Below, one piece after another: positions 40,503-43,884 of a DNA stretch of 64,000 nt. The notes beneath the pieces are model-generated. The model ran no database searches, was not told the DNA's origin, and saw only the letters and a list, made by a program, of their open reading frames with translations. Positions within the stretch are counted from its first letter, which is position 1. Every line of letters starts with the position of its first letter. Origin of the DNA: Clostridia bacterium (GTDB lineage: Bacteria; Bacillota; Clostridia; Christensenellales; CAG-314); NCBI GenBank assembly GCA_017500855.1, contig JAFVYC010000024.1, forward strand, positions 8,330 through 72,329, in the 5' to 3' direction. The translations under genes were made by a program, and so were the position numbers.

Positions 40503-41537
40503 ATGTCTAAACAAGTAATCGTTCGGAACGTTGCCATTGGTGGTGGCGCTCCCATCACAATTCAATCCATGACAAACGTCAGCGTGACGGACGTCCAAGC
40601 AACCGCCAAACAAATTTCCCGTTTGATAGATGCCGGTTGCGACATTGTGCGCATTGCCGTTCCAAACCAACAGTCGGTGGAAGCATTTCGGCAAATTCGG
40701 GGAATGTTCGACATTCCACTTGTTGCCGACATTCACTTTGACTACAGGCTTGCTTTGGGCAGTATTTTGGCGGGAGCCGACAAAATTCGCATCAACCCCG
40801 GCAACATGCAAAAGCAACATCTTTTGCAAGTTATACAGTGTGCAAAACAACACAATGTGGCAATACGTGTAGGCGTAAACAGCGGTTCCGTCAACAAAGA
40901 GACGTTGGAAAGATGTGGTGGAAACAAGGCTGTTGCGCTTGTGGAAAGTTTGAAAGAGTACTTGCAAATTTTCCAACAACAAAACTTCCACAACGTTGTG
41001 CTTTCGGTAAAAAGCACAGACGTGCGAGAAACCGTTGCCATCAACAAAGCCGTTGCAAAACTTGGCTACCCAATGCATTTGGGTGTTACCGAAGCAGGGC
41101 TTTTGCAACAAGGCATTGTCAAAAACAGCGTTGGCATTGGCGCATTGCTTTTGGATGGCATTGGCGACACAATCCGTGTTTCGTTGACATCCGACCCTGT
41201 TGATGAAGTGCTTGTGGCAAAGGATTTGCTTGTTTCCCTTGGTCTCAAGGATGGAGTGACGTTTGTTTCTTGCCCAAAATGTGGCCGTTGCAGTATCGAT
41301 TTGGAAACAATGGCAAAGCGTGTACATGCCTACGTTGCCAACATCAAAAAACCACTCAAAATTGCCGTTATGGGTTGCGAAGTCAACGGCCCCGGCGAAT
41401 GCAAAGATGCCGACCTTGGCTTGGCAGGCTCCAATGGCAAATTTGTGTTCTTCAAACAAGGAAAAATCTACAAAACCGTACCTCAAGAAACTGCCTTTGA
41501 GGAATTTACAAAGGAAATTGACAAACTAGCAAAATGA
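40503..41537 (+). CDS. ispG: HMBPP synthase
   Basis: ADIHF, RINPGN, CPKCGR and MGCEVNGPGE. Confidence 0.96.
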   Translation: MSKQVIVRNVAIGGGAPITIQSMTNVSVTDVQATAKQISRLIDAGCDIVRIAVPNQQSVEAFRQIRGMFDIPLVADIHFDYRLALGSILAGADKIRINPGNMQKQHLLQVIQCAKQHNVAIRVGVNSGSVNKETLERCGGNKAVALVESLKEYLQIFQQQNFHNVVLSVKSTDVRETVAINKAVAKLGYPMHLGVTEAGLLQQGIVKNSVGIGALLLDGIGDTIRVSLTSDPVDEVLVAKDLLVSLGLKDGVTFVSCPKCGRCSIDLETMAKRVHAYVANIKKPLKIAVMGCEVNGPGECKDADLGLAGSNGKFVFFKQGKIYKTVPQETAFEEFTKEIDKLAK

Positions 41538-43165
41538 TTGTAGAACAACTGTGGGAAAAATTTCCCGATTTGAAAGATATTCGAGTTAGAGAAGTTGTGG
41601 TAGACAAGGTTGCAAGAAGAATTTCTTGTTCCGTGTCCTTGCCCGATTCCAACAATATTTCGCCGGCTAACAAGCGAGAAATTGTAGATTTTGTCAAATC
41701 TACAGTTCCCGCCAATTTCCATTGCTCGGTAACCTTCTTTAACGACAAATTCACGGAATTGTCTTTCAAAAAGTTCTTTGTAGACACGTTGAAAGCAAAG
41801 TACCCAATGTTCTCTTTCTTGAACAAGGAAAAAATTTCCGTCAAAATTCAAGGCAAGCACGTTGACGTTCAACTGCTTGTTGGCCCCGTGATGAAGGGCA
41901 ACATGGAAACGGCAAACTTTGCGGAAGATTTTTGCAACTACTGCAAAAGTTACACTTCCTACAGCGTTTTTGTGCAAGTGGAGGAAGATGCCAACTATGT
42001 GCCAACTCTCAATTTGGACGACCAACAAAAACTTGTCAAACTTTCCATCAAAAAGGAATTGTTGAAACCTGCCCGCTACTTCGAAGTGGAAAACGTGCAA
42101 AAACATGTTGGCAAAATTATTGGTACAAGGGCAATGTACATTGGCGACGTGCGTGGCGCAAGCCAATCGGCAGTGCTGTGCGGAACAGTTTCCAACAAAA
42201 CTCTCAAAGCTTCCAAAAACAACAGCAGTTTGCAAATTTGCAACTTCACTTTGACGGACGAATCGGGCAATATCCCTTGCGTGATGTTTGTCAGGTTTGA
42301 AATGACGGACGTTACCAAAATTTTGAAGTCGTCCGACAGCACGCAAAAACAAGCCGAGGAACTTTCCGAAAAGAACAAGGCAATCAACGACAAGCGAATG
42401 AAGAAAATGATGGACATTTTCGACACCATGCAAGTTATTGTTCGTGGCAAAATTGGCTACAACGACTTTTCGCAAAGGTTGGAAATGGTGGTGTTCGATT
42501 TGTGCAAATGCACAATCAAACCAATGAGCCAACAACCCAAGGCAGTTGCCAAAGTGCCAAGTCGCTACACGCTTGTGCATCCACAAAGTTTTGAAGAACA
42601 TCATCAACTTTCCTTCGTTGCCGAAATGGTAACTTCCAACTTGCAACAAGACTACGTTGTTGTCAATGCGCAACTGACGGGCAACAACCTTGCCAAGGAC
42701 AAACTGTTTGGCATTTGTTGCGTCAAAATTTCCAAAGGGCGCATTGCCGAAAAGTTTTTCACAGTTGTCAACCCGGAAATCCACTTGGACGACAATCAAC
42801 TTGCGTCCATTGGATGTGGAGTAGACAAACTGCAAATTTACCCAACCATCACGGAAATCATTCCCGATTTGTTCAAGTTCTTGCATGGCTACGACGTTGT
42901 TGGAATCAACCTTGTCAACACGCTCAACATGCTCAACTACTACGCAATTCCCTATGGCTACAGTTTCAACAACAAAATTGTCAACGAGCAAGATTTCTTG
43001 TTGCAACTGTTGGAAAATTCCACAATTTCCAAGCGCCCAAATCTCGGCAAAGTGGAAGAAATTGCCAAGGTTTGCAAAGTAGTGTACGAGGGCAACGTTG
43101 AATGCGACAGGCACGCAACCATCGTTGCAAGAAGCATCGTTTACTTGTCGGAAAGAGCATTGTAG
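41534..43165 (+). CDS. PolC-derived protein: N-terminal domain, OB fold and degenerate DEDDh exonuclease; no PHP or polymerase domain
   Basis: Sits at the ispG-[polC]-rimP position; OB-like LCGTVS...FTLTDESG...VRGKI; Exo-like YVVVNAQLTG...KFFTVVNP...PTITEIIPDLFKF. Confidence 0.75.
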   Translation: MIVEQLWEKFPDLKDIRVREVVVDKVARRISCSVSLPDSNNISPANKREIVDFVKSTVPANFHCSVTFFNDKFTELSFKKFFVDTLKAKYPMFSFLNKEKISVKIQGKHVDVQLLVGPVMKGNMETANFAEDFCNYCKSYTSYSVFVQVEEDANYVPTLNLDDQQKLVKLSIKKELLKPARYFEVENVQKHVGKIIGTRAMYIGDVRGASQSAVLCGTVSNKTLKASKNNSSLQICNFTLTDESGNIPCVMFVRFEMTDVTKILKSSDSTQKQAEELSEKNKAINDKRMKKMMDIFDTMQVIVRGKIGYNDFSQRLEMVVFDLCKCTIKPMSQQPKAVAKVPSRYTLVHPQSFEEHHQLSFVAEMVTSNLQQDYVVVNAQLTGNNLAKDKLFGICCVKISKGRIAEKFFTVVNPEIHLDDNQLASIGCGVDKLQIYPTITEIIPDLFKFLHGYDVVGINLVNTLNMLNYYAIPYGYSFNNKIVNEQDFLLQLLENSTISKRPNLGKVEEIAKVCKVVYEGNVECDRHATIVARSIVYLSERAL

Positions 43166-43247
43166 CAAATTTTTGTGTTTATGCAGTAAATTTTGCCAAA
43201 AATTGTGCAAAAATTTGACAAAATTGCAATTTGTTGAAACAAAACAG

Positions 43248-43276
43248 TTGTGTTTTGCGTTGTGGTGTGGTATAAT
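43248..43276 (+). promoter_or_regulatory. SigA promoter of rimP-nusA-infB
   Basis: TTGTGT-17-TATAAT with extended TG. Confidence 0.65.
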
Positions 43277-43375
43277 GAACGTACACAGAAATTGCAATTT
43301 CTAAGAAAGCTAGAAATTTAAGATTGAACACAATCATCGCAGTTTCTATCGCCTAGTTTAATTACGATACTACGG

Positions 43376-43405
43376 TGAGAGTGGGGATTTTTTTCTCCAC
43401 TCTCA
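43376..43405 (+). promoter_or_regulatory. rimP leader hairpin (attenuator-like)
   Basis: tgagagtgg...ccactctca stem about 20 nt before the rimP start. Confidence 0.7.
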
Positions 43406-43425
43406 TATTTATGATTGGAGGTTAT

Positions 43426-43884
43426 ATGGGAAAAGTTTCCGACAGCGTTTTTCAACTTGTTCAGCCCATCGCCGAAGGCTTTGGCTTGGAAGTTTTGGAA
43501 GTGCTCTACGAAAAGAAATTCGATGGTATGAACCTTACCATTGTGATAGACAAAGACGGTGGTGTTTCCATCGACGATTGCGAAAAGTTGCACCGTGCAA
43601 TTGACGCTCCGTTGGATGAACTGGACCCCATCGATTGCCAGTACATTTTGAACGTTTCTTCCCCGGGAATTGACCGTCCGCTAAAAACGGAAAGAGACTT
43701 CAAACGCAACCTTGGCAGAAAGATTTGTGTCAAGTTCTACAAGCCTTTCAACGGCAAAAAACAGTACCAAGGTATTTTGTTGGCGTACACCGACGAAACT
43801 TTCGACCTTCAAACACAAGACGGTCAAACAATGACAATCAACAAAAAAGATACGGCCAAAATTGAGCCTGTTATAGAATTTTAG
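43426..43884 (+). CDS. rimP: Ribosome maturation factor RimP
   Basis: IDKDGGVSIDDC and VSSPGIDRPLK. Confidence 0.96.
   Translation: MGKVSDSVFQLVQPIAEGFGLEVLEVLYEKKFDGMNLTIVIDKDGGVSIDDCEKLHRAIDAPLDELDPIDCQYILNVSSPGIDRPLKTERDFKRNLGRKICVKFYKPFNGKKQYQGILLAYTDETFDLQTQDGQTMTINKKDTAKIEPVIEF

Follow-up and report, generated by a model that had tools for sequence, protein, structure and literature searches.

The window, meaning the whole 64,000-nucleotide stretch of contig JAFVYC010000024.1 analysed here (assembly GCA_017500855.1, a Clostridia bacterium of the order Christensenellales), contains at 41534..43165 (+) an uninterrupted open reading frame (ORF) of 543 amino acids, which is a remnant of the polymerase gene polC. 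Its neighbours, identified with Pfam, are cdsA, dxr, rseP and ispG on the 5' side and rimP, nusA and infB on the 3' side, and its ATG at 41534 shares the letters ATGA (41534-41537) with the TGA stop of ispG. A preliminary description of the stretch had reported the intact ORF, this overlap and the position between ispG and rimP, and both sequence and gene order agree. It had also taken the locus for the clostridial polC site and the codon usage for host-like. In three PolC-bearing relatives, polC indeed occupies the same slot between ispG and rimP, and the order dxr-rseP-ispG-X-rimP-nusA recurs in all genus loci long enough to show it (related loci were gathered by a genus-only alignment search) and in five other families with the remnant. 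The GC content of the gene is 43.2% and its relative synonymous codon usage (RSCU) correlates with that of its neighbours at r = 0.76, so the codon usage is host-like. A second contig, assembled in an independent study, aligns over 40503-43516 without gaps and differs by 42 substitutions; the ORF is therefore not an assembly artefact. The gene and the parts of its product are as follows.

41534..43165 (+): PolC remnant of 543 amino acids, made up of an N-terminal domain (NTD), an OB fold and a putative pseudo-exonuclease; PolC profile match, intact frames in congeners
41534..41998 (+): NTD, residues 1-155, two small alpha/beta subdomains predicted to be KH-like; hhalign columns 7-155 against PolC 11-162, predicted local distance difference test (pLDDT) 93.8
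42086..42523 (+): OB fold, residues ~185-330; Z 14.1 to 3f2b_A, weak Pfam OB match, ratio of non-synonymous to synonymous substitution rates (dN/dS) 0.015-0.051
42299..42421 (+): helical, Lys-rich insert in the OB fold, residues 256-296 (EMTDVTKIL...KRMKKMMDIF); helices 260-266 and 271-293 in the model
42524..42649 (+): flexible linker between OB fold and exonuclease domain, residues 331-372, in place of the PHP-N segment of PolC; modelled as coil, pLDDT as low as 56-67 in places, PolC alignment
42605..42619 (+): clamp-binding-like motif Q358-L-S-F-V362 in the linker; Q358 invariant in 17 aligned remnants
42650..43162 (+): putative pseudo-exonuclease domain, residues 373-543, DnaQ fold; fold Z 16-19, motif table, dN/dS 0.08-0.134
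42665..42673 (+): remnant of ExoI, N378-A-Q380 (D to N, E to Q); alignment and motif table
42905..42922 (+): remnant of ExoII (HNxxFD), I458-N-L-V-N-T463, catalytic D to T; alignment and motif table
43097..43114 (+): remnant of ExoIII (HxxxxD), V522-E-C-D-R-H527, H to V and D to H; motif table

An in-situ remnant of polC

A profile of 17 remnant orthologues aligns with 23 PolC N-termini from the same order at probability 100 (hhalign, E 4.3e-62, 501 columns), and the aligned region takes in the NTD, the OB fold and the whole exonuclease domain, colinear with PolC. Relative to PolC, the remnant has lost the PHP-N segment (HLHTxMSxMD...AITDHG) and stops directly after the exonuclease domain; a Pfam scan of the remnant returned 0 PHP and 0 polymerase (PF07733) matches. 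Matches of the remnant to single models are faint: 26.7 bits to PRK00448 (cut-off 873) and 21.6 bits to TIGR01405 (cut-off 1043) for PolC, 22.5 bits to Pfam tRNA_anti-codon (OB) over residues 214-258 (under the cut-off of 27), and weak NCBIfam DEDD-exonuclease matches over residues ~364-487, far under their cut-offs. PF00929 (RNase_T) gave 0 matches in the remnant at E <= 0.01 and has a precomputed match in 4 of 16 near-length relatives.

An AlphaFold model of the remnant (mean pLDDT 82.1; predicted template modelling score 0.48) comprises the NTD (1-155), a poorly modelled connector (159-178), the OB fold (~185-330), a coil linker (331-372) and a DnaQ fold (373-543), and its top Foldseek match is the PolC of E. 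faecium (9qpc_A, E 9.3e-12, 413 columns). In VIA-align, residues 200-330 superpose on residues 233-331 of the G. kaustophilus PolC OB fold (3f2b_A; Z 14.1, root-mean-square deviation 1.5 Å, 99 residues, 20% identity), and residues 371-543 match the S. aureus DinG exonuclease (Z 19.0), E. coli epsilon (2gui, Z 17.4) and residues 422-591 of PolC 9qrn_A (Z 16.3). The profile alignment, the fold matches to PolC OB and DnaQ domains and the empty Pfam scan for PHP and polymerase domains bear out the preliminary reading of a PolC derivative that has lost both, and the gene is an in-situ remnant of polC.

The OB fold is the most conserved part of the remnant. Its insert, with 22% K+R, is found in both genera of the window's family and is absent from the other exonuclease-dead family, from exonuclease-active remnants and from PolC. 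The preliminary description was right that a helical insert is present but had put it at ~30 residues; it measures ~41 (residues 256-296), in two helices. The NTD, modelled alone at the pLDDT listed above, forms two beta-beta-alpha-beta(-alpha) units. Fold searches with it gave Foldseek E values of at least 2e-4, at template modelling scores of ~0.3, and VIA matches to Era KH, S3 KH, RbfA and DnaA domain I with Z scores (5.5-8.6) such as common arrangements also give; a solved PolC NTD was absent among the matches. The NTD of PolC is unresolved in cryo-electron microscopy entries (PMC12592400) and has been predicted to consist of two KH-like subdomains (PMC3919608). The matches of the modelled NTD are compatible with that prediction and do not prove it.

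DnaE-only genomes and the loss of the exonuclease site

The genome that contains the window (1.52 Mb in 41 contigs, 91.9% complete) has one PF07733 match, in a DnaE-type frame of 1195 amino acids on contig C8, and a search of it with the PolC model TIGR01405 revealed no PolC-size frame. An order sample of 121 genomes from 42 families was scanned with PF07733 and with a 17-row remnant profile. Exactly one PF07733 match was present in 56 of the 121 genomes, in DnaE frames of ~1160-1290 amino acids where listed; PolC-bearing genomes have three each, because PolC matches in two pieces. The window lineage thus replicates with DnaE as its sole C-family polymerase, as the preliminary description had supposed. 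Single-match genomes belong to 18 of the 42 families, and several of them are 99-100% complete or assembled in 3-10 contigs. With G105, whose DnaE is in two pieces, and G082, which has no PF07733 match at 93% completeness, these families comprise 58 genomes. All but one of the 58 carry a remnant-type match, the exception among the best 150 of 164 matches being G113. Nearly all remnant frames are ~500-560 amino acids long, with a few shorter or cut by contig ends (363-466). In PolC-bearing genomes the remnant profile matches solely the exonuclease part of frames of 1113-1512 amino acids, again among the best 150 of 164 matches, and none of these listed matches places a PolC-size frame and a short form in one genome.

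In a class sample of 400 genomes, all 14 rows with a remnant-type match (398-561 amino acids, some cut by contig ends) come from this order, and in other orders the matches fall solely at the exonuclease domain of PolC-size or a few truncated frames, both statements applying to the best 150 of 209 matches. The best 150 matches in a representative library of 1.84 billion proteins are all short forms (257-577 amino acids, at least 298 bits). In the databases, one active relative is called 'exonuclease domain-containing protein [Christensenellales bacterium]' and the dead forms 'hypothetical protein'. In three remnant matches the frame is interrupted by one stop codon (TAA in G105:C14:5881-7362 and G139:C54:5141-5833, TAG in G024:C205), which may be a sequencing error, the mark of a true pseudogene or a case of recoding. 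Genome G006, listed with 5% contamination, has two remnant places with identical scores (G006:C2:79570-81204 and G006:C23:7073-8707); this may reflect contig duplication rather than a true second copy.

Most remnants retain an intact exonuclease site. The D-E-D-H-D set (FD.ETTG, HN..FD, HRA..D) is complete in 48/48 remnants from 15 DnaE-only families, a sample that leaves out family f31. Only 2 of the 18 families are exonuclease-dead: family f26 and the window's family, f1, which is made up of two sister genera, one of them 'Candidatus Fimimonas'. The catalytic set is replaced in all ~60 rows of the genus, in the sister genus (L081) and in 3/3 f26 rows. The National Center for Biotechnology Information (NCBI) taxonomy (taxid 2840648) lists 'Candidatus Fimimonas' under Myxococcaceae, with some congeners titled 'Corallococcus sp.', in conflict with the Clostridia-type gene order and PolC ancestry and with the titles of other congeners, which name uncultured Clostridia, Christensenellaceae or Oscillospiraceae of animal and human guts; this placement is apparently an inherited misnaming.

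In the window protein, all five DEDDh residues are replaced (N378, Q380, T463, V522 and H527), and the alignment and motif table agree with the earlier description of a dead exonuclease, in which ExoI read NAQ, ExoII GINLVNT and ExoIII was unrecognisable. Scaffold residues T382, G383, G402, E406, P414, D445, K448 and F449 are invariant across the 17-row alignment. A kept scaffold with a lost catalytic set is the pattern of a pseudoenzyme, and judged by its catalytic residues the window protein would be a pseudo-exonuclease lacking 3'-5' exonuclease activity. The genus consensus at ExoI is VVLH[AV]NxTG, the replaced positions being mostly H and N; within the genus the first varies among H, Y, F, N and D and the second among N, Q and D, the window protein having N and Q. 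Residues at the catalytic positions in f26 are entirely different from those in the window genus.

Trees were built from the remnant and PolC proteins themselves. PolC N-termini are separated from the short forms by one branch with support 100 in both FastTree (88 rows) and IQ-TREE in quick mode (LG+G4; 48 rows, two to four from each family, excluding L124 and five fragmentary PolC rows). The dead forms of f1 and f26 form one clade nested among the active remnants (support 99 in FastTree, SH-aLRT 97 in IQ-TREE), a topology that fits one truncation followed by one inactivation. On these trees and motifs, the window protein, which is 21-24% identical to exonuclease-active remnants, is a derived member of the dead minority of a larger PolC-remnant family with an active-looking exonuclease and a clamp-type motif. 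One f26 genome (L125, G049:C10:171000-173300) encodes an extra frame of 450 amino acids with an intact DEDDh domain that scores 125 bits against the remnant profile; in f26 this protein may have taken over proofreading.

The dead form is under strong purifying selection. Forty-six full-length loci were found in species-representative genomes, and the single frame is intact in 23/24 congeners, the 24th being fragmented over contig ends. Whole-gene dN/dS (NG86) is 0.053-0.127 across 10 pairs. Synonymous divergence is unsaturated (dS 0.23-0.68) in four of these, from which the values by domain were taken: 0.045-0.168 for the NTD, 0.015-0.051 for the OB fold, 0-0.042 for the insert and 0.081-0.134 for the pseudo-exonuclease. 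The lone domain value of at least 0.2 is 0.58 for the linker, over 40 codons in one of the four pairs. A second strain differs at 19 synonymous and 5 non-synonymous sites with 0 indels (24 ORF substitutions listed, 8 further differences unlisted). The gene is thus kept intact, as the preliminary description held; that description had named as refuting results a lack of structural likeness to PolC, dN/dS near 1 or frameshifts in close relatives, and a full-length polC elsewhere with this gene unexpressed, and none of these was found.

Clamp motif, proofreading and the role of the dead form

The consensus of the beta-clamp-binding motif is QL[SD]LF. A related pattern, Q-x-x-[LMIF]-[FLI], lies in the linker of 41/48 active remnants (for example QADLF, QTDMF, QTSLF and QASLF), where the site typically reads Q-x-[SDN]-[LMIF]-[FL]; the background rate of Q..[LMIF][FLI] elsewhere in these proteins is 0.033 per 42 residues. 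Full PolCs of the order carry the motif at their extreme C-terminus (QVCLF, QLTFL, QLSFF), so that copy was lost with the polymerase, and the DnaE of the window genome has one such motif, QMSLF at 924-928. The active remnants are probable candidates, on motif evidence, for clamp-tethered, epsilon-like proofreaders of DnaE1. In the window's family the linker reads Q-x-[SNT]-F-[VTA]; of 47 distinct linkers, 27 have F-V, 5 have F-T and 3 have F-A.

With its remnant dead, the window genus probably relies for proofreading on the PHP domain of DnaE1. The signature HHDHEHCDH, a criterion for an active PHP domain (PMC12926913), is complete in the DnaE of 25/25 genus genomes, 1/1 of the sister genus, 4/4 of f26, 1/1 of f8 and 4/4 PolC-bearing genomes. 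According to the same source, Clostridia normally have three active proofreaders, and in B. subtilis the PolC exonuclease can proofread DnaE in trans (PMC12926913). A stand-alone DEDDh exonuclease of 187 amino acids is encoded in the window genome (contig C29:44267-44830; L002:1498-2061) beside a formate/nitrite transporter and ends in the clamp-binding-like QTSLF. Its homologues occur in 13/24 congeners (E <= 1e-5), and 0/14 fetched congener homologues share the tail, most ending in EFIRPY; for this distribution, the unshared tail and the lack of replication context, a stand-alone DnaQ was rejected as the general missing proofreader. A further frame of 771 amino acids (C4:18212-20527; L005) has an N-terminal DEDD-type exonuclease (RNase_T, 36 bits) followed by ~550 residues.

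The history that we propose from the trees and distributions would begin in an ancestor of about half of the order, where deletion of the PHP and polymerase parts of PolC would have left DnaE1 as the sole C-family polymerase. The leftover NTD-OB-exonuclease would have gained a beta-clamp-binding motif in the new OB-exonuclease linker and lived on as a protein of its own, which probably acted beside DnaE1 as a 3'-5' proofreader, epsilon-like and tethered to the clamp. On the lineage to the window's family and f26, all five DEDDh residues would then have been lost, and the window's family would additionally have gained the basic helical insert in the OB fold. The dead form would be retained for a non-catalytic role at the fork, its OB fold holding single-stranded DNA (ssDNA) of the template or primer, and the linker motif, pseudo-exonuclease scaffold and NTD bridging the clamp, the polymerase or the clamp loader. 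Epsilon has a structural role for E. coli Pol III, and the dead form may play a similar part, with proofreading carried out by the PHP domain of DnaE1. Our preferred reading, to which we assign a probability of roughly 0.55, is that the in-situ polC remnant is now a non-catalytic accessory subunit of a DnaE1-only replisome, derived from a clamp-tethered, epsilon-like proofreader. Clamp binding, replisome membership and ssDNA binding are predictions for the window protein from its sequence features, and the clamp motif of the wider family plausibly strengthens the case for a replisome adaptor.

Several observations weigh against this reading. Seven of the 48 active remnants are without the motif, namely the two of f24 (L091, L097), three of f11 (including L107 and L128), L100 (KKSLF) and the unaligned L124; tethering to the clamp may thus be limited to part of the family. 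The motif of the window's family is itself non-canonical, with F-V, F-T or F-A in place of L-F, and clamp binding may there be weakened or lost. The grouping of f1 with f26 joins two long branches and could be an attraction artefact. The remnant also diverges far more quickly than established replisome components encoded in these genomes: congeners are 36-45% identical in it but 69-80% identical in DnaN and 76-85% in the N-terminal part of DnaE (57-69% in ispG and 74-82% in nusA).

In a different fate, the remnant would have left the replisome and become a general ssDNA- or RNA-binding factor of repair, recombination, or RNA or ribosome metabolism. The likeness of its NTD to KH-type II-like modules (Era, RbfA, S3, DnaA domain I), the degenerate clamp motif, fast evolution relative to DnaN and DnaE, strongest constraint on the OB fold and a place beside rimP-nusA-infB would all suit such a factor. 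However, the neighbourhood is inherited from polC, and rimP appears to have its own promoter; Q358 and the hydrophobic pair that follows it are conserved family-wide; and NTD fold matches at middling Z scores are silent on function. We consider this fate unlikely, though it deserves serious attention, and continue to favour a non-catalytic subunit of the DnaE1 replisome.

The remaining explanations concern whether the protein is still an enzyme, still functional or truly a replacement of polC. Conservation of the replaced ExoI positions within the genus (mostly H and N) and purifying selection on the domain might point to a nuclease or phosphoesterase with a re-modelled site, for example one using the conserved His and Asn of VVLH[AV]NxTG. 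Such an enzyme is very improbable, as all five metal- or water-activating residues are gone, the substitutes differ among species and are entirely different in f26, and a kept scaffold with lost catalytic residues is the usual mark of a pseudoenzyme. That the gene is a functionless relic, a pseudogene in progress, would account for the lost catalytic residues and the low identity within the genus, but is barely credible given the intact frames in 23/24 congeners, the 46 full-length loci, the dN/dS of 0.053-0.127 and a within-species count of 19 synonymous to 5 non-synonymous changes, among the substitutions listed, with 0 indels. Equally little credence attaches to a full polC missed in incomplete assemblies, with the ORF as an extra paralogue: the window genome is indeed only 91.9% complete and in 41 contigs, but the short gene occupies the polC slot itself, the 56 single-match genomes include the nearly complete and few-contig assemblies described above, and no PolC-size frame occurs together with a short form among the best 150 of 164 matches.

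A broader proposal can be put forward tentatively, and we would expect it to fail somewhat more often than to hold: about half of the order would run a fourth, undescribed type of bacterial replisome, with DnaE1 as sole polymerase and a PolC-derived, clamp-riding epsilon analogue, dead but essential as a structural subunit in 'Candidatus Fimimonas' and one other family. If true, this would give bacteria their first natural example of a replicase that contains a pseudo-exonuclease subunit and would indicate that the structure of a proofreader is separable from its chemistry.

Known systems and the neighbourhood of the gene

The closest known relative of the remnant is PolC, with which it shares the ispG-polC-rimP locus, a colinear NTD, OB fold and DnaQ-type exonuclease, and OB and exonuclease folds that match solved PolC structures. 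Unlike PolC, it has no PHP, palm, thumb or fingers domain and no C-terminal clamp motif, is ~540 rather than ~1400 amino acids long, has its exonuclease residues replaced and carries the extra helical OB insert. The active remnants of sister families share its gene, locus and architecture and fall in one clade with it, but keep D-E-D-H-D, have a canonical Q-x-[SDN]-[LM]-F and lack the insert.

Epsilon (DnaQ) of E. coli is likewise a separate DnaQ-fold polypeptide (2gui, Z 17.4) in a DnaE1-only organism and carries QTSMAF just after its exonuclease domain; the wider remnant family also has a clamp-binding-type motif beside the exonuclease domain. In contrast to epsilon, the remnant derives from PolC and not from dnaQ, has an NTD and OB fold in front, places the motif N-terminal to the exonuclease and, in the window member, is predicted to be dead. 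PolA2/APEX, PolB2 and many Pol I orthologues also keep a DnaQ-like fold after losing the active site, and the vestigial DnaQ-like domain of PolA2 carries a clamp-binding motif (PMC12926913). In those proteins the dead domain is attached to a working polymerase, whereas in the remnant the polymerase is lost. PHP-proofreading DnaE1 enzymes offer a further parallel, in that the window genome and its relatives keep HHDHEHCDH and would belong with them; this concerns the partner polymerase and not the remnant.

The bacterial replicase combinations recognized in the literature are DnaE1 only, PolC+DnaE1 and PolC+DnaE3, Clostridia being assigned PolC+DnaE1 (PMC3919608, PMC12926913). A study that mapped PolC across Firmicutes makes no mention, in the parts consulted, of a Firmicutes lineage without it (PMC11040001). 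Our literature search found neither a Firmicutes clade without PolC nor a stand-alone PolC N-terminal protein, the supplementary tables of PMC12926913 and PMC3919608, which could list exceptions, lying outside its scope. Within that scope, the earlier suggestion of an undescribed replisome arrangement holds, and the finding is best described as known parts (PolC, DnaQ/epsilon) in an undescribed replisome make-up of a large gut clade.

A large uncultured clade of gut Clostridia would thus have lost the PolC polymerase, gone back to DnaE1 alone and kept the N-terminal half of PolC in use as a protein on its own. It offers a natural experiment on the function of the PolC NTD and OB fold, both poorly understood, in the absence of the polymerase. 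With the active remnants, an epsilon-like proofreader bound to the clamp would have arisen independently for a second time, and in the window genus the structural role of a proofreading subunit would be cleanly separated from its catalytic role. Ibezapolstat and other PolC-targeted antibiotics are designed to spare organisms without PolC (PMC12592400) and so should not hit the DnaE-only gut Firmicutes of this clade.

The features on either side of the remnant are the following.

40503..41537 (+): ispG (GcpE); Pfam GcpE 440 bits, NCBIfam ispG 420 bits, TGA overlapping the start of the remnant
43166..43374 (+): non-coding stretch between the remnant and rimP, in which TTGACA and TGgTATAAT resemble promoter elements; read by eye, not returned by a consensus scan
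43375..43884 (+): rimP, which opens the rimP-nusA-infB cluster found 3' of polC in relatives; Pfam RimP_N and DUF150_C, synteny

Given the promoter-like elements before rimP, as read by eye, the remnant would be the last gene of a dxr-rseP-ispG transcription unit. A hairpin with a 13-bp stem followed by a T-run lies at 43375-43406, exactly on the GTG used as the start of the rimP ORF, and is preceded by the promoter-like TTGACA and TGgTATAAT (43200-43280). Together these elements resemble a leader or attenuator that serves the rimP-nusA-infB operon, and rimP itself probably starts downstream of the GTG at 43375.

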